A DNA stretch of 55,444 nucleotides from an uncultured Acidobacteriota bacterium (GCA_963718435.1 CAVQZQ010000085.1:1-55444); one strand, 5' to 3'; positions 1-55,444 are shown, counted from the first letter of the stretch. The notes: a model not told the origin generated them from the sequence alone. A program made the numbers and translations.

Positions 1-500
1 AGGTCGCGCGACTCGAACCGCTGGAACAGCGACGCGGTGATGACGGGGGCGGGCACGCCCTCGTCAATCGCGGCCTCCACCGTCCACCGGCCCTCGCCGG
101 AGTCGGAACACCCGGCCGCCGAAGTCGTCCAGGTTCGGCGACTTGGCGAGCGCCGCGGCGGTCAGGTCGATGACCAGGAGGAGATCACCGACCCGCGCCG
201 CCACACCTCGGCGACGTCGGCGAGGTTCATCTCGTACTGGTAGGCCTCGGGGTCGCGCAGCGGCGTGTTCTCCGCGTCGTGCGTGGCGTTCTTCTGCAGG
301 CCGATGTCGGCCCCCTTGATACCGACAGCCCCTCGGCGATCGCGGCCATCAGCCGTCCTCGATGCCGTTGTGCACCATCTTGACGAAGTGCCCGGCGCCG
401 GACGGCCCGCAGTGCAGGTACCCCTGGGACGCCTGGGACCCCGGGGGGGCGCCCCGGCGTCGGCTCGACGCTGCCCTCACCGGGCGCGATCGACTTGAAG
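1..500 (-). pseudogene. gnd: 6-phosphogluconate dehydrogenase (decarboxylating) fragment, N-terminally truncated, with at least 3 frameshifts
   Basis: Reverse-strand translation gives [16 protein letters not shown] (349-395), [41 protein letters not shown] and [33 protein letters not shown] in three different frames. These are classic 6PGDH motifs. GC is about 72% with GC-rich third positions, unlike the rest of the window. One frameshift sits at a G7 run (about 437-447). Confidence 0.6.
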
Positions 501-519
501 ACGGAGTCGAAATTGGGAA

Positions 520-1506
520 GGGCTGGCAGGGGAATCTTTGCCGTTGCACAGGATTCATCCGCGATCTTCGAATCGGTCGTTGCGGCGGCCGCGCACATGC
601 CGAGTTCAAACGCCAGAGCCGGCAGGTGCGCGGTAACGCAGGCGCATGAACTTATCGCGCCCGGCAGCCTGTCGGGCGTGCTGGAATTGCTGGCTGCCGC
701 GCCGGGAAAGTGGACACCAATTGCGGGCGGCACCGAATTGATGGTGGCCCATGCTGCGGGGAAGCTGAACGCGAGCAAACTGATCAGCCTGTGGGGCGTT
801 CCCGAGTTGCGCATTGTCGAGGTGACGCGAGACTGTAATGCCATTGGCGGCAGGCACGACATTTTCCGACTTGCGCGGCGATGGCGGCGATTGCGACGAG
901 AGTCTCCCGCTGCTGGACAAGGCGGCTAGTTGGATCGGGGCGATCGCGAACCAAACCGTGCGACCATTGGCGGCAACCTTGTGAACGGATCGCCGGCAGC
1001 GGATTCATCACCCGCGCTGCTGGTCTATGATGCGGAACTGGAATTGGTTTCGACGCGCGGAAAGCGGCGAATCCCTTACCCGGAGTTTCACACGGGCTAC
1101 AAGTCGTTGCGCACTGGCTGCGGATGAACTGCTTTTGGCGATTCATTTGCCGCGACGGTTTGCACAACATCGACAATATATTCGCAAGGTGGGCACGCGG
1201 CGCGCGATGGCGATTGCAAAGGTTGCACTGGCCGGTACAGCGCTGTTGAGGGATGGTGTGGTCAGCGAAATCCGACTGGCGGCCGCCAGCCTTGCGCCAT
1301 TTCCGATAAGGCTAATGCAAACCGAAGGCGTGCTGCTGGAACGCGCGATTACGCCTGATCGGATTCAAGTGGCGCGCCAGGCGATGCTTGCCGAGGCGAA
1401 ACCCATCGACGATATTCGCTCGACTGCGGAGTATCGTCGGCGCGTCAGCGCGAACCTGCTGGAAGAGTTCCTGCTCGAGTTGCGGCCGAAAGAGTTGTCG
1501 CAATGA
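520..1506 (+). pseudogene. xdhA: Xanthine dehydrogenase XdhA-like (end of 2Fe-2S domain fused to FAD-binding/CO-dehydrogenase flavoprotein domain); 5'-truncated, one in-frame TAG, at least 2 frameshifts
   Basis: GNLCRCTGF (end of the 2Fe-2S small-subunit motif) in frame 2 at about 528-554, then IAGGTELMV and IGGNLVNGSPAADSSPALLVYDAELEL FAD-domain motifs in the frames of ORFs 495..929 and 930..1127. An in-frame TAG lies at 927-929. The C-terminal CO-DH flavoprotein domain is in ORF 1027..1506 (RSTAEYRRRVSANLLEEFL). The stop overlaps the uraD start (ATGA). Confidence 0.6.
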
Positions 1507-2012
1507 ATGCGAATCTCGCAGAGTGGAATGAAGAGCCCCAGGCGGCGGCAATGGATAGGATGATTGCGTGTTGCGGCGCGCGGCGATGGGCAGAGGCGAT
1601 GGTGGCTCTGCGACCGTTGAACAACATTGTGGATTTGAGCACGGAGGCGGACCGCGTGTGGAGCAGGATGGAAGAAGCCGATTGGATGGAAGCATTCGCG
1701 TGCCATCCGCGGATTGGCGAACGGAAGGCGGCGCATGCCACTGCGAAGTCGATGGCGTGGTCGCGACAGGAACAAGCGTCGGCTGCGGATGCGGCTGAAC
1801 AGGTGATGGCTGAGTTGGCCGAGGGCAACAAACTCTATGAGGAGCGATTCGGCTTTACATACATCGTGTGCGCCACGGGCAAGAGCGCCGAAGAGATGCT
1901 GGCGATTCTGAACCGACGGCTGACACGCGACCGCACGACCGAGTTGGGTGAAGCGGTGGAACAACAAAGGCAAATCATGCAAATCCGACTGGGAAAGTGG
2001 CTAGCTTCATGA
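1503..2012 (+). CDS. uraD: OHCU decarboxylase (2-oxo-4-hydroxy-4-carboxy-5-ureidoimidazoline decarboxylase)
   Basis: 169-aa ORF with FGFTYIVCATGKSAEEML and other OHCU decarboxylase motifs. Its start overlaps the xdhA stop (ATGA) and its stop overlaps the uraH start (ATGA). Confidence 0.8.
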   Translation: MNANLAEWNEEPQAAAMDRMIACCGARRWAEAMVALRPLNNIVDLSTEADRVWSRMEEADWMEAFACHPRIGERKAAHATAKSMAWSRQEQASAADAAEQVMAELAEGNKLYEERFGFTYIVCATGKSAEEMLAILNRRLTRDRTTELGEAVEQQRQIMQIRLGKWLAS

Positions 2013-2338
2013 GCAGAATTACGACGCACGTTCTGGATACAGTTCTGGGCAAGCCGGCTGGCGGGGTTGCCGTGCGCCTTGAGATGAAGCATGGCGCTGC
2101 TTGGACCGCGATTTCGGCGGGCGAGACCGATGTGGATGGACGCTGCAACAATCTTGCGCTGGATGCGGACGCCGGCGAATATCGACTGACCTTCGCCACG
2201 GGTGCTTACCTGGCGCGGAATGGGCGGACCGGCATTTTTCCAGAGATTGCAATTACGTTTATGTGCGGAGGCGAGGCGCATAATCATCTGCCGCTCTTGT
2301 TGAGCGATAACAGCTACACGACCTATCGAGGAAGCTGA
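2009..2338 (+). CDS. uraH: 5-hydroxyisourate hydrolase (transthyretin-like)
   Basis: SRITTHVLDTVLGKPAGGVAVRLE N-terminus and the C-terminal YTTYRGS signature tetrapeptide of HIU hydrolases. ATG at 2009 overlaps the uraD TGA. Confidence 0.85.
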   Translation: MSRITTHVLDTVLGKPAGGVAVRLEMKHGAAWTAISAGETDVDGRCNNLALDADAGEYRLTFATGAYLARNGRTGIFPEIAITFMCGGEAHNHLPLLLSDNSYTTYRGS

Positions 2339-3186: not shown

Positions 3187-3770
3187 CTAATCGAGTTGGG
3201 CGAGATCGTCGGGAATGTCGATGTCCAATTCGCCACCTTCAAATGGAAGCGCAATCACGGGGCAGGGCGGCTGAATCATCAGCGAACGCGCACCTTTGTC
3301 GCCGCGAAGTGCGTGCAAATCGGGAAAGACCGACCGGGAAAAACGGCCGGAACGCCCTGGGCGCCCGAATAGGAAGAGGCAACGATCGAGGGCGTCGGCT
3401 GCGCTGCAAACGATGTGAGCAATGCGTGCAGATGGATGGCAGTGAGGCGCGGCTGATCGCAACTCATGAGGAGCGCTCCAGGAGCATCGGGCGCCCGGAT
3501 ATCGAGTTCATGCAAACCGGCGTGGATGGAACTCGATAAGCCCTTTTCCCACTTGTCGTTGAGTACGGGGATGGCGTCATTGAACGGGATCATCGCGCGG
3601 ATGCGCTTGAAGTGAGCACCGAGCAGGACCACCACGGGCGTCGCTCCTGCCTCTTTGGCGACGCGAAGCGCGCGTTCAAGCAGGGTTTCTCCGCAATATT
3701 TGATCAGTTGCTTGGGTTGGCCGAGTCGGCGGCTCGCACCGGCAGCAAGGATGAGGGCGGGGACAGTCAT
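3187..3770 (-). pseudogene. mocA: MobA-like molybdenum cofactor cytidylyltransferase (MocA/CoxI-like), one frameshift near 3290-3330
   Basis: MTVPALILAAGASRRLGQPKQLIKYCGETLLERAL nucleotidyltransferase N-terminus in ORF 3279..3968. The conserved C-terminus FPDLHALRGDKGARSLM is in the overlapping ORF 3187..3462 in another frame. Confidence 0.55.
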
Positions 3771-3845
3771 CGGCACCAGTGTATCGCGCACATCTTGACT
3801 TCGCGGTTCATCACGGGCAAGACTAGAGCAACCTGTTGACAAGCA

Positions 3846-5856: not shown

Positions 5857-6275
5857 GCTAACTGGCAGCCGGCCGAAATCCAAAGTCCCAGCGGCTTGTG
5901 TGGGCACGTATTCGCTGCAGGTTAGGGAAAATTCAGGCGAAATTGAACGATTTCAGCAGCTTTTCTTCTCATTTGCGGACGCCTGAACTTGGTTTGGGCA
6001 CGACCGGGCAGAGGCGCGTTGCCGCGCGCAGCGTGGGCCCGGAGGGCAGTAATTTTTTAGACGATCCTTATACCGGAGCGGCTATTCTATAGTTGCCCTT
6101 TAGCCCAAACTTAAGCCAAATCCCGGCAACGGGCAAAACGCGATCGGACCCTCAATTTTTCCGCTTTTTTTTGAACGTTCAGCACTCCAGATTTCAAACT
6201 CACTCCAAGGCTGTTGGTCCCTCCAAGAGACCTTGGGAATTTTCATTTCAGAGGCCATTCGACTTGAGGTATTCC

Positions 6276-9200
6276 ATGCATATTTTCTCCTCTCTGCATT
6301 CCCGGCTGCCGGCAATCGCGGCAGCCGTTGCGCTGTGTAGCTTTCCAGTGTTGGCACAGCAGACGCTCGGCGGCATCAGCGGCACGGTGACAGACCCGAA
6401 TGGGGGCGTGATTCCGAATGCCGGGGTGACGGCTGTGGGCGAGCAGACGGCGTTGACGCGCACTGCATCGACGAACGGCTCGGGGGGGTATTCGTTTGTG
6501 AATCTTCCCATCGGCACCTACACGCTGACGTACACGGCTGAAGGATTCCAAATCCAAAAGACCCCGCACATCACGGTGCAGGCCGATCGCACGGTCACGC
6601 TGAATGCCGAACTGAAGGTCGCGGCGGCCAAGGGCGACACCGTCGTGGTGGAAGGCTCACCGCTGATGAATGCCGTGGACACGACAGTGGGCTATGTGCT
6701 GGACAAGACGCAGATCGATGCGGTGCCGCTGGCTACAGGCAGCTTCACGGGCCTGGCTACGCAATCGACCGGGGTGAGCGCGGAGTTTGGCGGCGGAACG
6801 GGCGCGAATTCGGGTCTTGGCAATGCTCCGATCTGGGCCAACGGGCAGAGGGACACTTCGAATTCCTTCGTGCTGAACGGAGTGGACGCCAGCAACCTCT
6901 TCAACGGCAAAAGCACAAGCCAGGTGGCTTCGGCCCGCGTAATCAATAGCACGGGCGTGTCTTCGAGCACAGGGGCCGGGGGCGTGATTCCTTCTTCCGC
7001 TTCCATTTATCTCTCGATCGGCAACGCTATTCCCACTCCAGCACCTGAAACGATCGCAGAAGTTCGCGTGAACGCCTCGATGTACGACGCGCAGCAGGGA
7101 TCGACATCGGGCGCGCACATCGATCTGAGCACAGCTTCGGGCACAAACAATCTGCACGGCACGGCGTACGTTCACCGCGGCACGAGCTGGCTCAACGCGG
7201 CGCCGTTCTTCTTCAACCAGGACCCGGACATTCCGGCCTACAACAAGGTTCCGGAGATGCACCGCTACACTGCAGGCGGCGCTGCGGGCGGCCCGCTGAT
7301 CAAGGACAAACTGTTCGGCTTCGTCTCGTACCAGCACTTGCAGGAGTCGGATCAGGAGATCGGCGACTCGGTGCTGGATGTGCCTGTGGGCCTGAGCGAC
7401 GACCGCTCTGCCGATGGCCTGGCGAACGTGTCCAATAACTCGTTTTGCACCGCGTACGACGAGGCCAATTTTGGCTGCACTCCCATTACGGCGGCCAATA
7501 TCGACCGCACTGCGCTGGCCCTGTTCAACTCGCCTGCTCTTCCGGGTGAACCGGGTAAGTGGCTGATTCCCAATGACGCGCTGGCTGCCGCCAACCTGCC
7601 GCCGCCGAGCGCGGCCCATATCGACAACGCATTCATCCCCGGAACAGGACGGTTCAAGGCAGATCTAATCGTGGGCGATCTGGATTACAACGCCAGCAAG
7701 AAAGACACGCTCAGTTTGAAGTACTTTTACCAGCATGATCCGACGCTTTCGCCCTACTCCTACTCAAGTGTGCCCGGATTTACGGAGCACCTGGACTCGG
7801 GCGCGCAGGTGTTCTCGATCATCAACACCTTGATCGTGAAGTCGAACCTGAGCACGACGCAGACACTCGGAGCGATTCGCGAGAAGAACTACGGGGACAA
7901 CGAACAGCCCTTTGGCCCCGATTCGATTCCCGGCGGGACGGCAGGCAATGGGGCCATCAACATGTTCGGATCGAAATATTTCCCCGGCATTTCCGTGTAC
8001 AACGTGCTGGGTGACTATCAGCCCTCCGGATTCCCAACGGCCATCCTGAATATCGGACCCAACGCGGAAGGGCAATCTTCCAATACAGGGATGTTCCAGA
8101 ATCGCCTGGCTCCTTCGGCCAACGCGATCTGGATCATCGGGAAACACACCTTGAGCTTCGGCGCCAGCTATACCTACACGCAGCTCAATACGATCGACAA
8201 GCGCACCGGTACTGGCACCATTGCGACGGACGACTTGAGCCAGATGGTGCAGGGCTTCGTGACGCCCGGCAGCTCTGCTACCGGCTTCTATGTCAGCTCT
8301 TTCCTGCAGGGCAACGCGAACCGATACTACCGCGCCAATCAGCTTGGGACGTATCTGCAGGACAAATGGCAGGTGAAGCCGAATCTCTCGCTCACGGCGG
8401 GCGTGCGCTATGACTGGGACGGAGGCCTGACGGAGAAGTATGGGCGCATCTTCAACTTCGACGCGAGCCGGTACAACTACAATTCAGCCTCGGACGTGAT
8501 TGAAAATACCGGACTGATCATTGCCGGCAACAACGCGAATGGCACTTCCGGCGTGAGCCCGACGACCCTGACCGGCCGTCAATGGGGCATCGCCCCGCGC
8601 GTGGGCGCGGCGTGGCAGCCGGGCATGTTCCACAACAAGGTAGTGGTGCGCGCGGGCGCCGGGATGTACTACGACCGCGGAGAGCTTTTCAGCTACTTCT
8701 CGCCCGGGTATGCCATCGGCACGGTCACCGGCGGCCCTTTCGGCGTAAACCAGCAGCTTCCTTTCGTGAATGTTTCAAGCTGCCCGACTGCGTCGCAGTC
8801 GCTGTATGAGTACTACATTCCGACCTGCGGCGGGAACGGCGGTTTTGGCCCTCCGACGGGGCCGCCGACCGATGCGGAAGGCGATCTCTCAAACCCCTAT
8901 GGGACTGCTCTCCAATACGCGGCGCCCAACAGTCCGAAGGCATCTGACTTGAGCAACTACCTGCCCAACGCTTACAGCATCACGAACTTTGGCGATGGGG
9001 CGCCGGGCGTGATCAACAACGGCCAGCCGATTTCGCTGGGCGTCTACGACCGCAAGAACAAGCTGCCGTACACCTTCAACTACACGCTCGACTTTCAATG
9101 GCAGCCGCGCAACGATGTGGCGATTGAAGTGGGCTATGTAGGGAACGTGGGCCGCCACCAGGTGATTCCGGTGCCATTCAACCAGCCGACGATCGCCTCT

Positions 9201-10293
9201 CCTTCGAGCCCAGCGCTCGCGGGCAGTGCCTATCAGCAGAACTACAGCTATGGGTACAACGTCGGTGGAGAGGCTCTGCCCGACGGAAACTTCTACCAGG
9301 CGAATTATGAGGGCGGCAACGTCGATCTGCGCGTTCCTTACATCGGTTATGCGGCTGAATCCATCACTTACGTGGCCGCCGGTATCGACGCATACAACGC
9401 GCTGCAGGCACACGTTGACAAGCGCATGAGCCACGGCCTCCAGGTCGGGTTGTCCTATACCTAGTCGCATGCACTGGACGAGCAGAGCGGCCTGGGCCTG
9501 TTCTACAGCGGCAACAATCCTCTGAACCTGCGCAGCGGGTATGGCTCATCGGATTATCGACCGCACGCATGTCATCAACTTCAACTACGTCTTACCAGAT
9601 TCCGGGGATTGCCCGGCGAGCACTCCCTCGCCGGCAAGGTCGTCGACGGATGGTCGCTGATCGGCGACACCGTGCTGCAGAGCGGCCAGCCCTACAGCAT
9701 CATCGACTTCTCCGGCGCTGTCGGCAGCATTTATTACTCACGGCCGACGGCATCACCAACCCCATCGTGCCACTGGCGAAGGGCTGCACCGCCAAGAACG
9801 CCTTGACGGGCGCTTCCGGCGCATGGACACCCTCCGGCGGCCTACCGGCCCTGAAGACCTCCTGCTTCACTCTCCCGCTGCTGCCGCCAGGCGGCCTGAA
9901 CGGCGCCATCCCTACTTCCGATCCTTACGAAACCGGGTTCACGAACGGCCAGCGCAACATCTTCCGCCAGGCTTTCCAGAAGCGTGCAGATGCGTCGCTG
10001 GTGAAGGTTCTGCCGCTCCGCGAGAGGTACAACTGAAGTACACCTTCGACTTGTACAACCTGACGAACACCACGAGCCTCGATATTCCGGGAGCCGAGGT
10101 GTCACAAAACGCCGGCTACAACCCGTTCCCCGCAGGTACTTGGGACCAGCCCGTCGGCTCCCACACAGGCTCTTCCGACGTCCTGCGATTCCTCCAGCAC
10201 GGGGTTCTATGCCTGTCCTTCCGGGTTAGGTATTGTGACCCACACCATTGGCAGTCCGCGACAGATACAAATGTCGTTGCGGCTCGATTTTTG
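6276..10293 (+). CDS. TonB-dependent receptor with N-terminal carboxypeptidase regulatory-like domain; the 3' roughly 830 nt carries an in-frame TAG (9462-9464) and at least 4 frameshifts
   Basis: ATG at 6276 with a GAGGT RBS and a signal peptide (MHIFSSLHSRLPAIAAAVALCSFPVLAQQ). A CarboxypepD_reg-like beta-sandwich follows (ISGTVTDPNGGVIPNAGVTAV, GGYSFVNLPIGTYTL). An intact 1062-codon ORF runs to 9464. Receptor sequence continues in shifted frames (GKVVDGWSLIGDTVLQSGQPYSIIDFSG, QLKYTFDLYNLTNT) to the canonical C-terminus SPRQIQMSLRLDF* at 10293. Confidence 0.75.
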
Positions 10294-10307
10294 AGCTGAT
10301 CCCGGCA

Positions 10308-10338
10308 AACGCACAAAGGCCATCCTGCGCGGATGGCT
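10308..10338 (+). terminator. Rho-independent terminator after the TonB-dependent receptor
   Basis: GCCATCC tgcgc GGATGGC hairpin followed by TTTTGTGTGTTT. Confidence 0.5.
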
Positions 10339-10789
10339 TTTGTGTGTTTGGAGGTCTGAGCGAATCACTGGAGCTTTGCAGTTTACAGTTTCACAGCTTC
10401 ACAGTCTGAAAAAATCCGGTTGAGGCGGCTTACGCATTTGCTTTAAAGAGTGCAACTTAGCTCATTCACGAGTGGAAATTTGCTCAAATTTGCTCTGATT
10501 TGCCTGGCTTTTAGCGACCATTTAGAGCGTTTTGACCGCATTTGGTGGACATTTGAACAGTGATCAGAGGTCAGAGACCAGGGGTCAGGGTACACGCCAC
10601 GGGCCAATAAGTTGATTGTGCGCTTTTCGGAGAAATAATCTGCAACGTCCGGGTGGGAATTTTTGTGAGGGCCGGTGGCGCGGAGGGTCGTGAATCCCGC
10701 CCTTCTCGGATAACGAAGTTCGTTACTTTCCCAAGGTTGGTCGTTGTCATGAAGTTGACGGCGGAGGGGGTTCTCCGCCGTTTGGACAG

Positions 10790-13839
<3,050 letters not shown>

Positions 13840-13943
13840 GTGAATCTCCGTATGCAAGTGTAAATGGCTGTGAGTTGCAGCGAAGGGCCGGGCGGACCGG
13901 CCTGCGTGCGGGTTCGCACACATCGCGCAGCAAGCGCAAAGAA

Positions 13944-14345: not shown

Positions 14346-14444
14346 ATTGTTTCACAACTGCGGAAAGCTGGAAACGATTGGCCGCCGGACCCTAGGGTCA
14401 ATATTGTGAAAGGCGAACACGTGCGCGGCGAGGAGAATCCCCTG

Positions 14445-15152: not shown

Positions 15153-15319
15153 TGCTGAGTTGCTCTCAATCGGAGTATAGCAGCGGCAAAATGCGGCTTC
15201 TGTTTAGGGTTCCGGTCGTAGAGAGCCTACGCCTCATATTGCGCGATAAATGAGCACGGCAGGAGACGGATGGGCCGCGCCTGCAGGACGACGTATGAAC
15301 AGCGGCGTCAGCCAACGAT

Positions 15320-15620: not shown

Positions 15621-15652
15621 CTTCGGGACGGACTGGTGCGTTGGTTTTGGGT

Positions 15653-23956: not shown

Positions 23957-23959
23957 TGG

Positions 23960-41481: not shown

Positions 41482-41717
41482 GAGTCTCCTCCAGGTTTCA
41501 AGCCAGATCAATCCCGTAGAATGCCTAGATCGGCGAACCGTTGCCCACTTCCGGTTAGAAATCGGCTTCCTGGAATTGGTTTTGGACCGTGGTCCGGTCG
41601 AGTAGAAAATAAACTGCGGGAGAACCGCGGAAGAAACTGATAATGGGTCCAGGACTGCGGATCCAGGATCGAAAATCCAAATCGTCACGAACTGGGGAAT
41701 GGTGTATAGAGGTGCAA

Positions 41718-43010: not shown

Positions 43011-43462
43011 TCTGCGCAAGGGCCGATTGAATGCGGGCAGCGCGGCTGAGGTCAGGATTGGCCCCGGTGGCGGTCACTCTGTCCGCGCTGTTTCTCCAAA
43101 CAGGCGCACTGCTTCGAGTGAATCCGGCGAGACAGTTCCGTCTTCGTACATGAGGAGATTGAAACTGAGGGCCAGGTGGCGGGCTTTAGCATACTTCGCC
43201 ATGCTCACAATTTTCTCGGAACGGAAAGGTCGGCGATGCTGCCAGTCCCCGGAATGCAAGGTGCAAACGGATTGGACCTGCAGGACGGAGGTGTTTTGCC
43301 GCCTCCGATGCACCAGATTCCTGTGTTTGCGTCCCAGTCATTGTCATAGCGCAGGCTGGCAGCGATGGCATAGCATGAGTTCAGTCGCTGGTTGGTATGC
43401 CGCTATCTTTTGGGACGGTGCCAATGGGAGACCAGGCTAGAAGAAGAGCAAAGAAAGTGGGA

Positions 43463-45116: not shown

Positions 45117-45153
45117 ATTCAACACGACAGTTTGGAATTCATAAGGAATCCAC

Positions 45154-45480
45154 TTGAAAAGATATGGAATGGTGATCGGACTTAAGCCGGAGTGCGAGGA
45201 CGCATACCGGGTCGCTCACCGCGAGGTTCCCGCCGCGATCCTCAGCATGATCAAGGAATGCAACATTCGCAACTATTCGATCTTTATCCGCAACTACGTC
45301 TTGTACAGCTATTTCGAATATGTTGGGGTGGACTTCAAAACAGATATGGCGAAGATGGCCGCAGACCCGGCTACGCAGGAATGGTGGAGCCGCATGCAAC
45401 CGATGCAGTTACCGTTTGAGGATCGGGCCGCTGAGGAATGGTGGGCTGCGATGGAAGAGGTGTTTCACTTTGACGGATGA
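45154..45480 (+). CDS. rhaM: L-rhamnose mutarotase (RhaM/YiiL family)
   Basis: 108-aa ORF MKRYGMVIGLKPECEDAYRVAHREVPAAILSMIKECNIRNYSIFIRN...QEWWSRMQPMQ...EVFHFDG matches the RhaM fold signature. Confidence 0.7.
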   Translation: MKRYGMVIGLKPECEDAYRVAHREVPAAILSMIKECNIRNYSIFIRNYVLYSYFEYVGVDFKTDMAKMAADPATQEWWSRMQPMQLPFEDRAAEEWWAAMEEVFHFDG

Positions 45481-45821
45481 GACGATCCGCGGTTGTGTTT
45501 CGGGGCGCCGGCATCTCAGGGCGCATCACATCGCTATAGCATCCTCACGATGGCGCAATTGAAGACGCGGGACGAGGTTTATCTTCTACAACGGCCCTAC
45601 ACGTTTCGGTATTCGTGCAGCTCCGTTCGTCGCGGATCGCCTCACTTTGGCGTGCTGACGGGGCATAGCCCGCATTCCGTGGCTGTCGGGGATTACACCT
45701 CCGCCCCTTCTCCTATAGCATTCGATTCTGAAGAGGTTCGACGCAGACGGGCTGCCATTATTCGATCGTCAACCCTATGGCGTCAGTTTCGTCTAAAGAA
45801 CTGGAAGTGTGTCGCCGATCC

Positions 45822-47042
45822 ATGAATAAACAGATCATGATGCGAATTCGAACGATTCTGGCATATGCCGCCCCGACGTTGGCTATGGCGTGGCTGCCCG
45901 CCGCCAGTTCTGCGCAGGAACCTGCGACGGACAAGCCTGCTTTGACCATGCATGTGCAGGCGCGCGAAGTGCTGCTGCCGGTGACGGTGCGCGACAAGCA
46001 CGGCGCGCTCGTGACCGATCTTCAGAAAAGCGACTTCACTTTGACTGAAGACGGCCGTCCGCAGGTCATCAAGAGTTTTGCGCGCGAGACGAACCTGCCT
46101 TTCAAACTCGGACTGCTGGTGGATACGAGCCGCAGCGTATCAGGCGCGATGGAGAATGAACGTAAGGCGGCGGGAACATTTGTGGACCAGATGCTGCCGG
46201 GGGATCCCGCCGCGGCGTCGGCTTCGGGAAGCACTGCCGGGCCCGCGGCCGCTGCGAGCCCCGCGCCTTCTGCGAATGACCAGGCCTTTCTGCTCCATTT
46301 TGACCGTGAAGTGGAACTGCTGCAAGACTTCACCAACTCGCGGGAGAAGCTTCACAAGGAACTGGACGACATGGGGTCCACTTCACGAACACAGGACGAC
46401 CGTGATGGGCCGGAGACCACAGGAGACAACCGCGATCATTCGCGCCGGGCGGGCACACAGCTTTACGATGCGATCTTCCTGGCCTCCGATGAACTGATGA
46501 AGCCCAAAGACGGGCACAAAGCGCTGGTCGTTTTTTCAGACGGAGCGGACCGAGGCAGCAAGGAGACACTAAACGACGCGATTGATGCGGCTGAGCGCGC
46601 CAACGTGTCGATCTACACCATCTACTTCAAGGGCGAACAAGAGCGCACCAACAGCGGATTTCCTGGCGGTGGGCGGCGTGGCGGAATGGGTGGCGGCTGG
46701 CCAGGCGGCGGCGGAGGTTATCCGGGGGGAGGCGGAGGCTATCCGGGGGGCGGTGGCGGACGGCGAGGCGGCGGTGAGCCCCAGATAGACGGCAAGAAAA
46801 TCATGGAGCAGATTGCCACACGCACCGGCGGCAGGTATTTCGATATGAAGAAGAAGGAAGACCTGGAGGAGATTTACGGATTGATAGCCACCGAGTTGCG
46901 CGGGCAGTATCTGCTGACCTATACGCCGGACAAGGTTGATACCGACGGCGGATTTCACAAGATCGCGCTGAAGGCGGAGAAGAATGATCTGACCGTGGTC
47001 ACGCGGGAAGGATATTTCGCACCGGGCGGCGACTCCAAGTAA
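45822..47042 (+). CDS. Secreted VWA-domain protein of the VWFA-related acidobacterial type, with a Gly-rich insert
   Basis: Signal peptide MNKQIMMRIRTILAYAAPTLAMAWLPAASSAQ. An N-terminal beta-rich module (LTMHVQAREVLLPVTVRDKHGALVTDLQKSDFTLTEDGRPQVIKSF) is typical of the acidobacterial VWFA-related family. A VWA core (LVVFSDGADRGS, SIYTIYF) and a GGGYPGGGGG insert follow. Confidence 0.7.
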   Translation: MNKQIMMRIRTILAYAAPTLAMAWLPAASSAQEPATDKPALTMHVQAREVLLPVTVRDKHGALVTDLQKSDFTLTEDGRPQVIKSFARETNLPFKLGLLVDTSRSVSGAMENERKAAGTFVDQMLPGDPAAASASGSTAGPAAAASPAPSANDQAFLLHFDREVELLQDFTNSREKLHKELDDMGSTSRTQDDRDGPETTGDNRDHSRRAGTQLYDAIFLASDELMKPKDGHKALVVFSDGADRGSKETLNDAIDAAERANVSIYTIYFKGEQERTNSGFPGGGRRGGMGGGWPGGGGGYPGGGGGYPGGGGGRRGGGEPQIDGKKIMEQIATRTGGRYFDMKKKEDLEEIYGLIATELRGQYLLTYTPDKVDTDGGFHKIALKAEKNDLTVVTREGYFAPGGDSK

Positions 47043-47051
47043 TGCAGCGTA

Positions 47052-47900
47052 TTAGACCTGAACCCTCTCTTTGGGGAGCGCTTTCGGCGTGCTCGCGGGA
47101 ACCTCTTCCTCGGTTACTACGAAGAAGTGGCACAGGTCTGCCTGTCCAAATGAAGTGGTCATGGCTACGTCGGAAGCGTCGCGGCCCGTTGCAACCAGAA
47201 CCCGGCCGATGCGGGGCGTATTGTGGCGGGCATCGAAGGTCCACCAGCGGTTGTCCAGGTAAGCTTCAAACCATGCGCTGAAATCCATGGGGCCGCCCGG
47301 CGGGACGCCAATGTCGCCCAGATAACCTGTCGCGTAGCGGGCAGGAATATTTAAGGCGCGGCAAAAGGTAATGGCAAGATGCTGAAAATCGCGGCATACG
47401 CCCACCCGTTCCGTGAGGACGTCGAGAGCGGTTTTTGATGGACGGGTCTGGCTGTAGTTGAAAGTGACTTTGGCCTGGACCCAATCGCAAATGGCCTGCA
47501 CACGGCTCCATCCAGATCTCGTGTTGCCGAATAGCTCGAGGGCGAGTGGAGACAAGCGATCCACCTCGCAATAACGGCTGCTGAGAAGATAGCTGAGCAT
47601 TTCATTGGGCAGATCGCCGACGGCGGGTGCGCGCGCAGACAGGTTGACGGGATCGGGGTTGCCGGAGTCGCGAATGAGCGCGGAACTGGCGAGCCGGAGC
47701 GGACCCGGTGGCGCAACGAATCGGGTACAACGATTGCCGAAACTATCGATATAGCTGGAAAGCTTCAGGTTGGGCTCGGTATGTATCTCGTCAGGCTCCG
47801 CAAGGTCGGGCACGCGCGAGGGATGAACGTTGAGCAGCGCAACCATGGCAACCGGGGCGGGAATCTGAAATTGGATATCGTATCCCACTCGAATCAACAT
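47052..47900 (-). CDS. Transglutaminase-like family protein with N-terminal bacterial TGase-N domain
   Basis: 282-aa intact ORF with MLIRVGYDIQFQIPAPVAMVALLNVHPS (Bact_transglu_N-like) and a TGase core Cys motif (TERVGVCRDFQHLAITFCRALNIPARYATGY). Confidence 0.75.
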   Translation of the reverse strand: MLIRVGYDIQFQIPAPVAMVALLNVHPSRVPDLAEPDEIHTEPNLKLSSYIDSFGNRCTRFVAPPGPLRLASSALIRDSGNPDPVNLSARAPAVGDLPNEMLSYLLSSRYCEVDRLSPLALELFGNTRSGWSRVQAICDWVQAKVTFNYSQTRPSKTALDVLTERVGVCRDFQHLAITFCRALNIPARYATGYLGDIGVPPGGPMDFSAWFEAYLDNRWWTFDARHNTPRIGRVLVATGRDASDVAMTTSFGQADLCHFFVVTEEEVPASTPKALPKERVQV

Positions 47901-48096
47901 GGTGGCCTCAGGTGCTGACTGCTCTTATGAGCTGGAATCTGTGAATGGCTTCGCTCCGCTGCGTTCCCGCCGGGAGAAGCTACGTTAGTTGATCGCGCAC
48001 GGGTCCGGACCGAGGAGAGGAATTCAACGGACCCGAAATGGCCACCGCCCCGGAATCGCGGAGCGATGGCATGGGGAAAAACTATCGGATTACCGC

Positions 48097-48690
48097 TTAG
48101 ACAAGTGCCTTGGACCTGGGCTCAACTTGCTCCTTTACCTGGAGGAGGTCATCGAAAAGCGCGCGGTAGTGGATCATGGCGGTGCGCAATTCTTCGGTGG
48201 TCGCCTCGTTTCTTGCGGCGCGCTGACTTATAGCATACGCGGAACGATAGGGTTCGACGAGGCGAGCGTGGTCAACTGAAATGTCGGCGACACGCTGATC
48301 GAAGCCCGCTTCAGGAAAACCCCGCGCGTGCAGAACGGAGTTGACCAGCTCATCGGCTTCAGTGACAGCACCTCGTGGACGATCAACAAAGTGGGATTGT
48401 ACGGCTTCCCAATCAGCGATGTAGCGCGCGCGTTCGGCATCGGAGAGGTCGCGAATCTGGAAATGCCGCACGCGTTTGACGCGGGCAAGAAGTCTTGCTT
48501 CGGCCTTGCGGCTGTCCCGGTCTTCTCGAACTGCCTGATCGTACTCGGGTCCAAAACGGTTCCGCAGTTGCACGGTCGTTCTCTTGTGTTGTCGTACCGC
48601 AAACGCGAGAGCGATCACGACGATGAGGATCACCGCGATCAAGCCAATGAGTACGGGAGGGCTGGTGAGAGTCGAAGAATCGAAATGCAT
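48097..48690 (-). CDS. Membrane-anchored hypothetical protein
   Basis: AGGAG RBS sits 9 nt before ATG 48690. An N-terminal TM helix (PPVLIGLIAVILIVVIALAFAV) is followed by a charged helical region (RNRFGPEYDQAVREDRDSRKAEARLLARVKR...). Confidence 0.45.
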   Translation of the reverse strand: MHFDSSTLTSPPVLIGLIAVILIVVIALAFAVRQHKRTTVQLRNRFGPEYDQAVREDRDSRKAEARLLARVKRVRHFQIRDLSDAERARYIADWEAVQSHFVDRPRGAVTEADELVNSVLHARGFPEAGFDQRVADISVDHARLVEPYRSAYAISQRAARNEATTEELRTAMIHYRALFDDLLQVKEQVEPRSKALV

Positions 48691-49134
48691 GGTGGCAATC
48701 TCCTGCTTCCTGGTGCCTTTCTGGTATCCGGGCCTGGGCGGTGTCGAGAATCGATAGCATGTGACTCGCAAACTTCGCCGGCTATGGCCGGATGGTCCAA
48801 CTCTTGGGATGAGAATCGCGCGTCTACTGTTGCTTGACGGCGCTGGGTGGTGGGGAAAGCGGGTAGTTGCACGGAGATGAGACTCTAAGCTAGAGCATTT
48901 CCCCTGATGGTGTTGTGGGTGAACAATTCCCTCAGGGGCCAAAACCCCAGATTTCATGCACCTTTACGCCACCAGGAGAACTGCTCTAAGGCTCCGTATA
49001 TCAATGGCTCAATGCGCGGCGCTGGAATATCCACTGCGCTTGAAGATTCGGGATCGAGGCTCGAACAGGGGAATCACTGAACGCAGCAAGGGCGCCCGCG
49101 TTGCGGACGCCCTTGTGTTTTGACGGTTGACGGA

Positions 49135-51810
49135 TCAGCAGGTGCCGTTGTGGATGTCTGGCCCCGTCTGTTGCTCCTGGAGTGCCGCTTGCGCAGCGGC
49201 GAGCCTTGCGGTCAACAACCGGAAGGGTGAGCAGGATACATAGTTGAGCCCGATCTTGTGGCAGAACTTGACGGAATCCGGATCGCCGCCATGTTCGCCG
49301 CAGATGCCGACCTTAAGGTTGGGCCGGGTGTTGCGTCCTTTAGCCGTGGCCATCTTTACCAGAGCGCCCACGCCAGGGATGTCAAGAGTGGCGAAGGGAT
49401 CCTGTTTGAAGATGCCGGCCTTGAGGTACGCGGGCAGGAAGTTGTTGATGTCATCGCGCGAGATGCCGAAGGTGGTCTGAGTGAGATCGTTGGTCCCGAA
49501 GCTGAAGAACTCGGCTTCTTCGGCAATCTGGTCAGCCGTGAGAGCAGCACGCGGCAGTTCGATCATAGTGCCGACCATGTAGTCGACTTTGGCGTTCCTT
49601 CTCCTTGAAGACTTCATCGGCCACGCGACGAACGATTGTCGCCTGGTGACGCATCTCCTCGATCGAGCCGATGAGCGGAATCATGATCTCGACGTGCGGA
49701 TCGCCGCCCTTTTTCTTAACCGCAACCGCAGCCTCGATGATGGCTTGCGCCTGCATCTCGGTAATCTCGGGGAAGGTGATGCCGAGACGGCATCCGCGCA
49801 ACCCGAGCATGGGGTTCATCTCGTGGAGTTCTTCAACGCGCGCCAGCAGCGTGCGCAGCTCCTTGAGCTTGGGTGAGCGCGGCTTGGTTTCTTCGAGGCG
49901 CGCGATCTGAACCAGCAGATCTTCGCGCTTGGGCAGAAACTCGTGCAGCGGCGGATCGAGCAGGCGAATGGTGACCGGCAGCGATTCCATTGATTTGAAG
50001 AGGCCCACAAAGTCGGCACGCTGCATGGGAAGAAGTTTCTTCAACGCAGCGCGGCGATCTTTTTCGTTGTCGGCCAGGATCATGGCGCGCATGTGCTCGA
50101 TGCGATCTTCGGCAAAGAACATGTGCTCGGTGCGGCATAGGCCGATGCCTTCGGCGCCGAAGAGGCGCGCCTGTTTGGCATCGCGCGGGATATCGGCGTT
50201 GGCACGGATGCGCAGCTTGCGCAGCGGATCGACCCAGGCCATGAACTTGACCAGATCGGGATCGTCCGGTTGCGCATCGAGGGTCTTGAGCTTGCCGTCA
50301 ATGACGCGGCCGGTTGTGCCATCGAGCGAGAGCCAGTCTCCATGCTTGAAGGTGTGACCCTTTACGCGGAGTTCCCTTTTGGCTTCATCGACGACGCAGT
50401 CACCGGCGCCGGCAACGCAGCACTTACCCATGCCGCGGGTGACAACTGCGGCGTGTGAGGTCATGCCACCGCGCGAAGTGAGAATGCCCGAGGCAACTTC
50501 CATTCCGGCGATATCTTCCGGAGTGGTTTCGCCGCGGACAAGGATGACGGACTTAAAGGAACCGTTGGTGTGGTGTTTGACCGCGTCTTCAGCGGTGAAG
50601 ACGATCTGTCCCACGGCCGCGCCCGGTGAGGCGGGCAAGCCAGTGGCGAGGACTTCGATCTTCTCGCCCTTTTCAACGAGGCGCGGAACCAGGAAGTCAT
50701 ACAACTGGTTGGGCTCGACGCGGAAGATGGCTTCCTCTTGCGTGATGAGTCCTTCGCGGACCATGTCGATAGCCACGCGTACGGCGGCGAGGCCGGTGCG
50801 TTTGCCATTGCGGGTCTGCAGCATGTAGAGCTTGCCATCCTGGATGGTGAACTCGAAATCCTGCATATCGCGATAATGCTTTTCCATCTTGCGGGTGATG
50901 TCGCGCAGCTGCTCGTAGACCTTGGGCATGGCGCGTTCGAGCTCGCTGATGGACAGCGGGGTGCGGACGCCGGACACGACATCCTCGCCCTGTGCATTCA
51001 TCAGGTACTCGCCGAAGAAGATATGCTCGCCGGTGGCGGGATTGCGGGTGAAGCCAACGCCTGTGCCGGAGTTTTCGCCGAGGTTGCCGAAGACCATGGC
51101 CTGTACGTTGACGGCAGTGCCCAGCCAGTCGTCGATGCGGTTGATGCGGCGATAGGTCTTGGCGCGCTCGTTCTGCCAGCTTCTGAAGACGGCATCGCGC
51201 GCCGCCACGAGTTGCATCCAGCGGATCCTGCGGGAATTCCTTGCCGGTTTCCTTCTTCACCAGCTTCTTGTATTCGGTGATGATCTCATGAGCGCGTCAG
51301 GCGTCAGCTCGTAATCGAACTTGACTTTCTGGCTGCCTTGACCGAGTCGAAAACGTGCTCAAACTTCTTCTTCGGGATGTCGAGCACGACGTCGCCGAAC
51401 ATCTGGATCAGGCGGCGATAGGAGTCATACGCGAAACGGGGATTGTTGCTGCGCTTGGCGAGCGCTTCAACGGCCTTGTCATTCAGGCCAAGGTTGAGAA
51501 TGGTGTCCATCATGCCGGGCATGGAAAACTTGGCGCCCGAGCGGACCGAAACCAGCAGCGGATTCTCGCCCATGCCAAGCTTCTGGCCCTGCATCTTTTC
51601 AAGCTGCTCAGCGCGGCAGCATCTCGTCGTCGATCTGCGGATTGAGCTTGCCGCGCATGTACTCGCGGCATGCCTCGGTCTGGATGGTGAATCCTGGGGG
51701 GACCGGCAGGCCGGCGTTGGTCATTTCAGCCAGGCCGGCACCTTTGCCGCCCAGCACGTCTTTCATGCGGCCATTGCCATCTGCAGTTCCGCCGCCGAAG
51801 AAATAAACAT
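49135..51810 (-). CDS. ppdK: Pyruvate, phosphate dikinase, full-length footprint but interrupted by at least 5 frameshifts
   Basis: The N-terminus [48 protein letters not shown] is in ORF 51608..51967. [27 protein letters not shown] is in ORF 51304..51594. The central part [16 protein letters not shown]...[15 protein letters not shown]...[24 protein letters not shown] is in ORF 49532..51217. The C-terminus [37 protein letters not shown]...[18 protein letters not shown] is in ORF 49135..49617. Confidence 0.85.
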
Positions 51811-52235
51811 ATTGATTGGGCGTTGAGGTTGAGTCTCGCCTGTCCGGCGAGAGGGCGGATCCACCACGCCCTGCGTCATGGGATATAGCCTCCGTATGTA
51901 GGATTTTCGCCCAGGCGGCGAGGAACTGCCGCCGAGGGACTTCGAACCCCGCGACTGCGGCTGCCATGACAAGTGTGGCGAACGGATTAGCTCAGCAATG
52001 GGAAAGACGGTAAAAGACTAAGCGCGTGCAGTCATCCAGACATTTGGCGGCGCCTCGCGGCGTTCAATCCGTCGCATTTACAAATAGCGCCGCAAGTATA
52101 CACTTGCCTGTGTTCCTCGTCACAGACCATTCGCCGGTCCAGCGCGTCACGCCCTATTGATTGGGTGGGAATTTTCGAAAAATGCTGCGCGAACTCCGCG
52201 CCAAATCAGCGGGTAGAAGCGGCCGCGAAGAAAAA

Positions 52236-52559
52236 TCAGGCGGCGGACCGCTCAAGCATGCCGGGAACGTGCGGGCATTGGGAACCGCATCGTGGGAAAG
52301 AAAAAGCGGTCGAGCACCCACCACGGCCGAGAATCTCAGCCACCCGTTCGGCTTGACGTTGACCACCGTGAATTATGGCCTGCGCTTTCGCGCTGCGTAG
52401 AGGGCGAGCAGCGCGGTGATGCCCGGCAGCGTCAATGCGTTCCACGCGAGCCAGATCGAGCGTCACGCTGTGGTCGAGCACCAGCGGGCGCGAGCCGTTC
52501 CACAGGGATTGATCCTGGCCTCGGACGAATTCGTGCATTTCTCCGAGGGCTACGAGCAT
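52236..52559 (-). CDS. Possible STAS-domain anti-sigma-factor antagonist, with 2 frameshifts (tentative)
   Basis: LVLDHSVTLDLARVERIDAAG is followed after a frame change by ITALLALY..., then AERVAEILGRGG, weakly resembling SpoIIAA-like STAS proteins. Confidence 0.3.
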   Translation of the reverse strand: MLVALGEMHEFVRGQDQSLWNGSRPLVLDHSVTLDLARVERIDAAGHHRAARPLRSAKAQAIIHGGQRQAERVAEILGRGGCSTAFSFPRCGSQCPHVPGMLERSAA

Positions 52560-52857
52560 CGATTCAGATGAATCGAAGGAACGCCATTCAGTTAGGGCAC
52601 TTCTGTGGCCATGAAAAATTTTCCTTGCAGCGGAGACCGGTTATGTGATCGGGCCGCGCAAATGGGTGCGACCTTTGCCGGTAACGTTGCACTCCGGACG
52701 CCAAACCGGCCCGGAAGGGAATATGCTGAAATCACAGGGGATGCGGCGATTGCCGATTTCGGACTGCTCCTCGGTTGCCAGTGTCCGGATTCGATTTTCA
52801 GCGTCCACAATCGAACAGGTTATAGCTATCTACGCAGAAAACGGGTAGACAAGTTCC

Positions 52858-54003
52858 ATGGATGTTGGCAATTCAGATTCGGCGTCGCGGCCGGTCGATG
52901 ACTGGTCATTGAGCGGCGAAATTGCGCGTTCGATGGCCATTGAGGCCGGATTCACCGAGGCGGGCCTGGTGGCCTTACCGCATGCCGAGGAGACGCGCGA
53001 GGCGTCACGATTCGAGCAGTGGATCCGGGCGGGACGCGCAGGAACCATGGATTATCTGTCGAGGACGAACGAGGATGAGCAGATGCGCCTGTCCGCTCGC
53101 GGGCGGGGATTCCGTTTCCTTGGGCGCGGTCGGCAGTGGTGTGCTTTGCCAGCTACCATGCGGCAGAGCCGCTCTCAACTGAACCGGCCGCACTGGGTGC
53201 CGGTTGGATTGCGCGCTATGCCTGGACAAGCCGCGTTGACGGTGCGGCAGTGCGTCGACCGAGCGATTACCACAAAGTTTTACTGAAGCGGCTGCGCAAA
53301 CTGGAGTCGCGGCTTCACGAGCAAGCGGGGGCATTCGAAGCGCGGGCCTACGTGGACACGGGACCGGTGGTGGAGCGCACGCTGGCCACGGCGGCCGGGC
53401 TGGGCTGGACGGGGAAAAATACCTGCCTGATCCATCCCAAGCTTGGCTCTTTTGGTTTTCTGGCGGTTCTGCTGACTTCGTTGCCGGTCGCGAGATGAAA
53501 CAGGCGCTGCGCTGGTCCGGGACCAATGCGGAAGCTGCCGGCGCTGCCTTGAGGCCTGCCCGACGGGTGCGCTGATCGCGCCTTACCAGATGGATGCGAC
53601 GCGGTGCATCTCGTACCTGACGATCGAGCACAAGGGAGCAATCGAGGCGGAATTGATGGAAGACATGGGACGGCAGGTCTTCGGCTGCGATATTTGCCAG
53701 GACGTGTGCCCATGGAATCGAAAAGCGGCACCCGGCGGGGACGCCGAGTTGGAGACACGGCCCGAGTTGGTGAATCCAGCGCTCGAATGGCTTGCACAGA
53801 TGGATGAAGCGGAGTTTGAACGGACCTTTAATGGCTCACCGGTGCGGCGTGCCGGGCTCCTCGGACTGCGGCGCAATGTGGCAGTTGCGATGGGCAACAG
53901 CGGGCTGGCGGGATTCGCGTCGCAGTTGCGCACGTGGGCGAGCGCGGCAGACGAAAGCTTGCGCTCAGCCGCGCTGTGGGCCCTGGAGAAACTCACCAAG
54001 TGA
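52858..54003 (+). CDS. queG: tRNA epoxyqueuosine(34) reductase QueG, at least 3 frameshifts
   Basis: N-terminus MAIEAGFTEAGLVALP...WIRAGRAGTMDYLSRTNE is in ORF 52858..53286. The middle YVDTGPVVERTLATAAGLGWTGKNTCLIHPKLGSFGFLAVLLTSLP is in ORF 53136..53498. The C-terminus RCISYLTIEHKGAIEAELMEDMGRQVFGCDICQDVCPWNR is in ORF 53590..54003. Confidence 0.75.
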
Positions 54004-54074
54004 GTGGGTTCGACAGATATCTATCACTCCGAACCACAGGCAACCGCAGCGGTGCGAAAAACGCCACGCAAAAG

Positions 54075-54281
54075 TTATACCACTCGCATTACATTGGCCG
54101 CGTTTAGGCCTTTGGGGCCTTGCTGGCACTCAAACTCAACAGCGTCGCCCTCGTTCAACGTTCTGTAGCCGTCTTCCTGGATGGCAGAGAAATGCACAAA
54201 CACATCTTCTCCGCTGGAGCGCTGAATGAACCCATATCCCTTGGCCCCGTTGAACCACTTCACCACGCCTTGTTCTTTCAT
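54075..54281 (-). CDS. cspA: Cold-shock protein (CspA family)
   Basis: [64 protein letters not shown] has the RNP1/RNP2 motifs. GGAG RBS sits 8 nt upstream. 68 aa. Confidence 0.9.
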
Positions 54282-54848
54282 AGCACTTTCTCCTTCTTGT
54301 ATCGCTCGAACAACGGCCATCCAAATACAGATCTTGCCGTATTGGCTGGCTCGATCCGACTGGGGATAGGTTCCTTCCGCCAAATAGGGCGCAGTTTCTC
54401 CCGGCGCTCGGCAACCTCGCGCTGTGGCAGCTCAATGACCTACCTGGATTGGAGTTGTGTCTGCGAGAACCAAAACATCCAAAGCGAACGGCCTTCTGTG
54501 AATTTTGAGGGACGCGCCCCCGCGCGCCGTGCTCCTGTTATGGCAGGAAATTCAAGAGGATGCAAGGGGAAAATTTGCGGGGAGCGGTTAAAGCAATCTA
54601 GGTGGTTGGACGTTACGGACGTCACAGCAGGTAATGAGCGCGAAGCGTCTATTCTTTAAGAAAGCCCAAAGAATCGGCAGCGACGCGTGCCCGAACCTAT
54701 ATTCGATTGGCCTTAAGGGAGTTATGGTGGACGTCCCAAATTCCGGTACGTACGTCGAGGCGGCAGCGAATACCGCGGAGATGGCCCAGGCGATCGATCC
54801 GGCTCAACCCCCAGGTGGCATCGCTGGCGGAGGGGAGGAATAGCACTG

Positions 54849-55444
54849 GTGCGTTACTTGCTGGACAGCCAGGTACACACCTACGCGTTCAGTGTCGCGG
54901 CCAATGCGATCATCTCGTTTATTCCTTTCATCGTGCTGCTCTACACGTTGTCACGGGCGGTATTTCACTCGCAGATGATGGTGCACGTGGTGGGCGAAAT
55001 GGTGCACTACTTTTTGCCGTCGAATCAGGATTGGGTTGCGGCAAGCCTGGCGGCCGCGGCGGCACGGCAAGGCGTGCAGGTGTTTTCGCTGGTCATGATC
55101 CTGGTCTCGTGCACGGGAATCTTTTTGCCTTTGGAAGTGGCTTTGAACCAGGCCTGGGGCGTGACTAAAAGCCGTAACTATCTTCTGAACCAGTTAGTAG
55201 CTTTTGGACTGGCAATCCTAATGGTCGGGCTGGCGATGATCAGCATCGTGCTTAGCACCTGGCAGCGCCAACTACTGGGTTTCATCTTCTTTCATCACAC
55301 CGATAACTTCGTGTTTGAAGGAGTCAGCTATCTTTGGCTGGCCGCATCCACGGGTGTTGCCTCGATTCTTTTCTTTTTTTCTATTTACTGGTTGCTGCCC
55401 ACCCGAAGAATTCCGTGGCGGCACGTTCTAATTTATGATTGCCT
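54849..55444 (+). CDS. YihY/BrkB-family inner-membrane protein, 3'-partial (runs off the window end); start uncertain
   Basis: Frame 0 is open from about 54810 to the window end with no stop. YAFSVAANAIISFIPFIVLLYTL and multiple TM helices are typical of YihY/BrkB. A GTG at 54849 is preceded by GGAGGGGAGGA. Confidence 0.6.
   Translation, partial: MRYLLDSQVHTYAFSVAANAIISFIPFIVLLYTLSRAVFHSQMMVHVVGEMVHYFLPSNQDWVAASLAAAAARQGVQVFSLVMILVSCTGIFLPLEVALNQAWGVTKSRNYLLNQLVAFGLAILMVGLAMISIVLSTWQRQLLGFIFFHHTDNFVFEGVSYLWLAASTGVASILFFFSIYWLLPTRRIPWRHVLIYDC

Follow-up and report, generated by a model that had tools for sequence, protein, structure and literature searches.

A metagenomic contig of 55,444 nt from an uncultured soil Acidobacteriota bacterium (GCA_963718435.1, CAVQZQ010000085.1:1-55444; the whole of this stretch was analysed, and is called the window below) is interrupted by frameshifts in many of its genes, and the question it raises is whether these are decayed genes or errors in the deposited sequence. 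The two genes most affected in a preliminary description were secA, which is essential and normally present as a single copy, and ppdK. That description counted at least 8 frameshifts in the former and at least 5 in the latter, and the numbers now stand at 15 and 6. Over the whole window at least 57 frame-disrupting events were mapped, in 16 genes. When all artefact mechanisms are taken together, it is close to certain that the lesions are artefacts. More specifically, they are probably consensus errors of the deposited sequence, which would have arisen where a long-read assembly with little polishing was poorly supported by reads.

Frameshifts in secA and ppdK

Ten of the 15 frameshifts in secA are +1 insertions. 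The first 800 nt of the gene (13052-13851) are lesion-free and the 3' 2.3 kb are lesion-rich. After correction of the frame, the protein has no internal stops, shows 87-88% identity to the nearest intact SecA, and carries 3 private substitutions at otherwise invariant columns, as against 2-12 in each of 24 close relatives. Corrected PpdK is likewise free of internal stops and is 95-96% identical to intact homologues; five of its lesions are in the 5' 600 nt, and there are none in the next 1.6 kb (49597-51218). Every coding lesion compared is absent from all relatives (13-25 references for secA, 10 for ppdK, and 10-25 overall), so that the damage is specific to this assembly and is not seen in the independent assemblies of related organisms. 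It consists mostly of insertions or deletions (indels) of 1-2 bases with few substitutions, and the corrected frames are normally conserved (87-96% identity).

Real pseudogenes, formed by decay of redundant copies or in a degenerating genome, would explain why the lesions are present in the deposited sequence, and as a single contig of the genome was seen, second copies of the affected genes are possible. Decay would add substitutions, and no excess of these accompanies the indels of either secA or PpdK; the 15 indels of secA without extra substitutions argue for an artefact rather than a pseudogene. Since, in addition, no lesion is common to any relative, the corrected frames keep their protein identity, the gene worst hit is one that a cell needs and normally has only once, and similar private lesions occur at other sites in contigs with Flye-style names ('contig_N') and not in short-read contigs (see below), a pseudogene origin is highly improbable. 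The preference of the preliminary description for artefacts is upheld on the same grounds.

Programmed recoding, in which real frameshifts are bypassed by ribosomal or transcriptional slippage, is even harder to credit. Beyond the bare fact that the frameshifts are in genes that must function, nothing speaks for it. There are up to 15 shifts per gene, their contexts are heterogeneous and neither slippery nor homopolymeric, no site is common to the relatives, and the damage also includes a premature in-frame stop (9462-9464).

It was suspected that secA might be broken throughout the clade, as the best 120 database matches to the N-terminal 263 aa of SecA are all fragments of less than 461 aa. 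This was ruled out: at 70 of 81 related loci SecA is matched over its full length in one unbroken piece, and among the other 11 it is mostly a contig end, and not a frameshift, that truncates the gene. Several of the fragments among these best 120 matches come from contigs longer than 500 kb. It would seem from this search that public protein collections contain many pieces of frameshifted secA that derive from long-read assemblies of soil.

Placement of the lesions

Lesions were mapped with a protein-to-DNA aligner allowing frameshifts, written for this analysis and run with intact reference proteins of relatives, which were taken from short-read metagenome-assembled genomes (MAGs), the isolate Acidobacterium sp. 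S8, good long-read MAGs and database searches. For the xdh FAD subunit, mocA and TonB-type receptor 1, which have no close reference, lesions were placed by domain coordinates. The closest DNA found is 88-92% identical (L002, L176-L178) and a same-species reference was not found; for this reason the position of each inserted or deleted base comes from multiple alignment and not from direct comparison. Each segment of the window was aligned at the DNA level with 2-25 relatives, and only those indels were kept that are private to it. A scan of JGI metagenomes with the transaldolase for syntenic references (16-37 kb) showed that synteny is not kept, and its sole gain was the poxB reference, L132. 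One private indel served as a control: it affects a single base at 41691, upstream of the aldolase gene, and is real, because an independent Logan contig (see below) confirms the stretch that contains it. Intergenic private indels were therefore not counted as lesions.

Clustering of the lesions along the contig

The lesions are concentrated in discrete blocks, as was first described: the per-kb counts give a dispersion index of 3.1 (p ~7e-14), and three patches, with 16% of the length of the window, account for 43 of the 57 lesions (4.8/kb, as compared with 0.3/kb elsewhere; Table 1). A gap of 14.4 kb, the length of the longest lesion-free stretch, was matched in none of 100,000 uniform simulations (run with an earlier list of 55 lesions). 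Patch 1 begins within the gene of receptor 1 and ends within secA. Patch 3 is at one end of the contig, and the opposite end is also damaged (xdh). The patches are positional, ignoring both gene borders and gene class.

In the preliminary description the blocks were thought to be mostly conserved and higher-GC genes, and were attributed to conserved genes shared among co-assembled strains or to low-coverage high-GC regions. Neither association is supported by the present data. Among the 22 genes with references, lesion density is not significantly related to protein identity (Spearman rho -0.25, p 0.27), mean identity being 0.84 for broken genes and 0.91 for intact ones, and its correlation with gene GC is essentially nil (rho 0.007). 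Only local GC is slightly raised, at 0.62 within 50 nt of lesions as compared with 0.59 at random positions, the clustered sites not being independent of one another.

If shared genes were the cause, as first proposed, reads of co-occurring strains would have been collapsed or mis-assigned in those of high identity, and consensus or polishing would have failed there. Soil Acidobacteriaceae are very diverse, with many related contigs in sister assemblies, and conservation is very high in both secA and ppdK (for PpdK, 99% identity to many relatives); moreover, the strain-specific region at 23956-41607 (17.65 kb) has only 7 lesions, and lesions of independent contigs nearly coincide with each other slightly more often than expected (see below). 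Collapse of this kind is nonetheless unlikely. The absence of a relationship between lesion density and conservation speaks against it, as do the identities of the genes on either side: those worst hit include the variable WXXGXW protein (60-77% identity to relatives) and the lineage-specific 3' end of receptor 1, whereas the highly conserved CSD, hyp160, ferredoxin-like gene, hyp197, tmk, recJ and transaldolase are intact. Furthermore, the patches cut through genes, beginning and ending inside secA and ppdK, which are uniformly conserved. A positional cause, namely a local lack of read support, appears to fit the distribution better than either of the causes first proposed.

Spectrum of the errors

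Within the aligned segments 68 private indels were found, of which 41 are one-base events (25 insertions and 16 deletions). Most of the one-base insertions (16 of 25) are unlike both neighbouring bases, and most of the one-base deletions (11 of 16) are of isolated bases. None of the 41 lies in a homopolymer run of 4 or more, and 27 are in runs of length 1; random placement would be expected to put 52% in runs of length 1 and ~5% in runs of at least 4. The lesions are not homopolymer errors, and the type of Nanopore consensus error that affects runs of 4-5 or more is not what is observed here. G/C homopolymers were implicated in the preliminary description, which can no longer be maintained: none of the 25 insertions is in a run of 4 or more, and no lesion could be tied to the G7 run (443-449), which lies ahead of the start of the xdh coding region. 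No recurring motif is evident in the displayed lesion contexts, although no formal motif test was run.

These counts also bear on systematic, sequence-dependent errors of basecalling or consensus, whether at G/C homopolymers, at high GC or at methylated motifs. The slightly raised local GC, one lesion that converts GG to GGG (22785), and four near-coincidences with lesions of other long-read contigs would be in keeping with such errors. Homopolymer placement, however, is at or below the random expectation, no shared motif is seen in the contexts, gene GC is unrelated to lesion density, and recJ is clean in spite of its high GC (0.62-0.64). Context-dependent errors would also be spread along the contig and not confined largely to 16% of it, and systematic errors are accordingly a very improbable explanation.

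Relatives and independent assemblies

By its SecA and PpdK proteins and by synteny, the host belongs to the Acidobacteriaceae, close to Terracidiphilus. Its nearest relatives among species-representative genomes are largely MAGs named 'MFDxxxxx.bin', with Flye-style contig names. They come from the long-read project Microflora Danica, in which only Nanopore reads were used, with metaFlye and a single Medaka round (PMC12313526). By analogy with these neighbours, we infer the same type of platform for the window. The platform of the relatives was itself inferred from their contig names (contig_N as against NODE_ or k141_) and from PMC12313526.

The ten short-read contigs of a sister species (L176-L185, ~90% identical) have intact DUF507a and DUF507b genes, and an intact DnaJ-domain gene where the contig reaches that far; to place the indels of the window, nine of them were aligned for the DUF507 genes and three for the DnaJ-domain gene. 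The window has 30 private indels with a length that is not a multiple of three. The corresponding figures are a median of 5.5, and up to 24, for 14 loci on Flye-style 'contig_N' contigs, and a median of 1, with a maximum of 3, for 9 MEGAHIT/SPAdes contigs (p 0.013). At the right end of the window, queG, the STAS-domain gene and ppdK are also fragmented in contig_27136, contig_53116 and contig_82328_np1212, at sites unlike those of the window, and are intact in five out of five MEGAHIT contigs. Two relatives, L084 and L085, have an identical PpdK, yet BrkB, QueG and VWA are broken in L085 and intact in L084. Similar damage is found elsewhere in assemblies probably made in a like manner, and is not found in short-read assemblies.

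Two Logan contigs (run ERR10755948) are 100% identical to the window, one over 37983-43939 (5,957 nt), which includes TonB-type receptor 2 (TBDR2) and much of its surroundings, and the other over 15523-16451 (929 nt), a clean island around tmk. As there are no differences in a total of 6,886 nt, the clean stretches are truly accurate, and quality along the contig is bimodal. TBDR2 and tmk were the only two found when Logan was searched by way of neighbouring intact genes. A lookup with CSD gave ten contigs of relatives, none of them from Logan, and the SecA fragment, transaldolase, MFS, DUF4331, hyp160 and the ferredoxin-like gene were not on record. Exact-sequence lookups placed hyp160, the ferredoxin-like gene and the transaldolase on this contig only. 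Since these three are also lacking in Logan, absence from Logan is uninformative with regard to the dirty patches.

Origin of the lesions

The preferred explanation is poor local read support. The consensus is essentially perfect over most of the contig, and in the three patches (1.8-3.6 kb) and at about a dozen scattered sites single-base indels occur at ~0.5-2% of positions. A rate of this order is typical of raw or barely polished long reads. Most probably the patches were carried by one or very few reads, or offered no usable polishing alignments, with the result that draft-quality sequence was kept. The position of one patch at a contig end, and the presence of lesions at the other end, fit low support. 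Long-read assemblies are known to contain errors that fragment genes (PMC12007338), and R10.4 bins with less than ~40-fold coverage have been reported to still need polishing, although they resolve homopolymers of up to ~10 nt (PMC9262707). The Microflora Danica authors themselves noted that coding density is low in MAGs of lower coverage (PMC12313526).

Several observations weigh against this explanation. Insertions exceed deletions (25 vs 16), which is unusual for a Nanopore consensus, and substitutions in secA are not visibly raised, though raw long reads would add some. In secA, lesions of independent Flye-style contigs (L002, L015 and L013) come within 6 alignment columns of lesions of the window four times (near 13052, 12975, 12070 and 11461), where ~1.2 would be expected, which hints at some sequence-dependent hot spots and not at pure effects of depth. 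Finally, a Logan contig over a dirty patch was not retrieved; Logan is also without several of the clean genes, its coverage being patchy.

It is also highly doubtful that the indels are real and stem from a localised, indel-prone mutational process, or from very recent decay in one cell lineage. If they were real, essential genes such as secA would have to be duplicated elsewhere or be rescued by an unknown recoding mechanism.

The value of these observations is as a warning about quality and not as biology. At least 16 genes would be mis-called as pseudogenes or split, and pieces of them have already entered public protein collections, where they form singleton clusters (P0001, P0242). Before any other conclusion is drawn in the window from a frameshift, a premature stop, an overlapping pair of open reading frames (ORFs) or a fusion, the lesion map should be consulted, and the three dense patches of Table 1 should be treated as draft-quality sequence.

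Other damaged and intact genes

Coordinates and lesions of the individual genes are given in Table 1. The disrupted genes named in the preliminary description (queG, DyP, mocA, xdh, the last 830 nt of receptor 1, both DUF507 genes, the DUF3034-like gene and the repeat-protein gene) were all mapped, and the two lesions it placed within 200 nt of each other in poxB proved to be a compensating pair. Lesions not on its list were found in the TPR, DnaJ-domain, STAS and BrkB genes.

Table 1. Dense patches, the longest lesion-free stretch, and individual genes of the window, with the lesions found in each.
Feature	Position (nt)	Strand	Lesions and remarks
Dense patch 1	9462-13052		18 lesions in 3.6 kb; 3' end of receptor 1 (last 830 nt), spacer, 3' 2.3 kb of secA
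Dense patch 2	16858-18635		~13 lesions in 1.8 kb; DUF3034-like gene and WXXGXW repeat gene
Dense patch 3	51218-54806		At least 12 lesions in 3.6 kb, near contig end; 5' 600 nt of ppdK, STAS, queG, start of BrkB
Longest lesion-free stretch	35236-49596		14.4 kb; includes 37983-43939 (Logan contig)
xdh/CO-dehydrogenase-type FAD subunit	647-1503	+	Three frames; shifts near 900 and 1115
mocA-like nucleotidyltransferase	3190-3797	-	One frameshift, near 3340
TonB-type receptor 1	6093-10296	+	Intact to 9461 (first 3.37 kb); in-frame stop 9462-9464; frame changes near 9737 and 10030
secA	10794-13851	-	15 frameshifts, agreeing across 13 reference proteins: 13052, 12975, 12521, 12388, 12191, 12070, 12021, 11888, 11851, 11787, 11621, 11461, 11103, ~11062, 10902
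DUF3034-like gene			At least 4 lesions, 16858 to ~17440
WXXGXW repeat gene			~9 lesions, 17786 to 18635
DUF507a and DUF507b	22359-22908	+	One inserted base each: C at 22469; GG to GGG at 22785
DnaJ-domain gene	23256-23953	+	One-base deletion at 23473
Encapsulin	24328-25137	-	No shift vs P0362; starts at 25137 with MNNLHRELAPIS
DyP peroxidase cargo gene	25133-26170	-	3 frameshifts: 25806, 25705, ~25233
poxB-like thiamine pyrophosphate enzyme	27978-29717	+	Compensating pair: -1 at 28912, +1 at 29051 (reference L132)
TPR protein gene	33851-36562	+	One gene as three overlapping ORFs; shifts at ~34551 and ~35235 (alignment to P0244, P0245)
ppdK	49138-51879	-	6 frameshifts: 51830, 51616, 51335, 51285, 51218, 49597
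STAS-domain gene	52239-52591	-	Heavily corrupted; at least 4 one-base events, 52300 to 52507, plus others
queG	52858-54000	+	2 frameshifts: 53087, 53493
BrkB-family gene	54724-55430	+	Truncated by contig end; one-base deletion at 54806

In receptor 1 the stop was recognised from the Pfam domain OMP_b-brl_4, of which positions 2-627 and then 629-731 are matched in the same frame, and from segments of coding potential; its two frame changes are approximate, there being no reference. The frames of the xdh FAD subunit follow from matches to FAD_binding_5 (positions 4-74, then 103-153) and to CO_deh_flav_C, each in another frame, and two frames of mocA align to residues 6-141 and 126-190 of PDB 2we9_A. 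The DUF3034-like and WXXGXW genes were examined by frameshift-aware alignment with 6-8 reference proteins, by DNA alignment, and by Pfam scans of their intact homologues. For the latter the count is approximate: the protein calls agree across references, but the DNA alignment had a single reference.

The inserted bases of the DUF507 genes are private in comparison with 13 relatives, nine of which are short-read contigs that are ~90% identical. Removal of one G from the GGG of DUF507b (22783-22788) gives a protein of 91 aa with an exact match on 22 contigs in JGI, Logan and ENA (P0512), a result that is supportive and not decisive, as the protein is highly conserved. Repair of DUF507a by deletion of one base was tried in four variants, which gave no exact database matches. 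The adjacent DnaJ-domain gene is intact (233 aa) in L084, L085 and L176-L178, and the STAS-domain gene is intact (117 aa) in all of the short-read contigs of the ten-contig set of relatives. Homologues of the TPR protein are 705-776 aa in length, as against a fragment of 453 aa called on the window. In poxB, the lesion near 28912 may be placed in either a T-run or a G-run.

The end of the DyP gene and the encapsulin gene appear to be joined in a single ORF (24322-25749, minus strand), which is an artefact, because the lesion near 25233 creates the joined frame. The C-terminal targeting peptide of DyP, GSLGIGSLKGD followed by a stop, is in a different frame from this ORF, and at the true end of DyP it is a typical encapsulin targeting peptide.

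The 10-mer CGCCTGTCCG has just two copies in the window (51837 and 53086), each at a private 5-nt insertion, one at the N-terminus of ppdK and the other in queG. Both insertion sites are probably a real codon-level indel combined with a one-base error, and the 10-mer may recur by chance or through an artefact common to both.

The genes described at the outset as clean are indeed clean. recJ shows no shifts against six references, DUF4331 and MFS have full-length domain matches, and NicO fusion, TonB-type receptor 2, encapsulin and the first part of receptor 1 are also free of lesions.

Gene order and a variable region

The gene map is based on Pfam scans and comparison with relatives. Genes on the minus strand are marked (-). 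The window opens with a gnd-like fragment, the xdh FAD subunit, OHCU decarboxylase, HIUase and uricase, followed by mocA (-), an amino-acid permease, DUF2165 (-), TonB-type receptor 1 and secA (-). Small membrane proteins (-), tmk (-), the DUF3034-like gene and the WXXGXW repeat protein come next, and then recJ (-), hyp160 (-), the ferredoxin-like gene, DUF507a, DUF507b, tRNA-Glu and the DnaJ-domain gene. Beyond these are encapsulin and DyP (-), transaldolase, poxB, the MFS transporter and DUF4331; the TPR protein, NicO fusion, TonB-type receptor 2, class II aldolase, a fucose-isomerase-like gene and rhaM; and finally the VWA protein, a transglutaminase-like gene (-), hyp197 (-), ppdK (-), STAS (-), queG, CSD (-) and BrkB. 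The gnd-like fragment (6-320, minus strand) is the 5' part of a 6-phosphogluconate-dehydrogenase-like gene that is cut by the contig end, and has one in-frame stop.

The strain-specific region between the DnaJ-domain gene and the class II aldolase gene, which carries DyP-encapsulin, transaldolase, poxB, MFS, DUF4331, TPR, NicO fusion and TonB-type receptor 2, is missing from the short-read contigs L176-L178 (90-92% identical). It is a variable region or island adjoining tRNA-Glu(CTC) at 23009-23083. Downstream of DnaJ, L084 has another gene set than the window.

Two paralogous genes for small membrane proteins lie upstream of secA (13950-14348 and 14898-15155, minus strand), with no match to a Pfam family; their homologues end in ...LPASFQRPPP. 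Ahead of each is a stretch of 78 nt (14304-14381 and 15196-15273), the two being 72% identical. A tandem repeat with a period of 48-49 nt and 4-5 copies (15399-15630) adjoins tmk, and the Logan contig L083 terminates within it.

Comparison with known systems

The closest parallel is with the indel errors of long reads (Nanopore and PacBio continuous long reads), which are the object of IDEEL-type tests and of Kastor (PMC12007338; PMC9262707), and which likewise consist of one-base indels that split conserved genes into adjacent ORFs. As in the window, they are specific to an assembly, commoner in low-coverage bins, absent from short-read assemblies of relatives, and leave fragments in protein databases. 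The window differs in two respects: descriptions from the R9 era centre on homopolymers, where its lesions are not found, and its quality is sharply bimodal along one contig.

Pseudogene-rich genomes, such as that of Mycobacterium leprae, resemble the window in having many genes with frameshifts and stops. True decay spares essential genes such as secA, adds substitutions, and is common to close relatives, and none of these three traits was found in the window. Programmed ribosomal frameshifting, as in prfB and dnaX, has in common with it a change of frame within a gene that has to be expressed. A programmed site occurs singly, keeps its position among relatives and is located on a slippery motif, whereas the window has up to 15 private, motif-less sites per gene.

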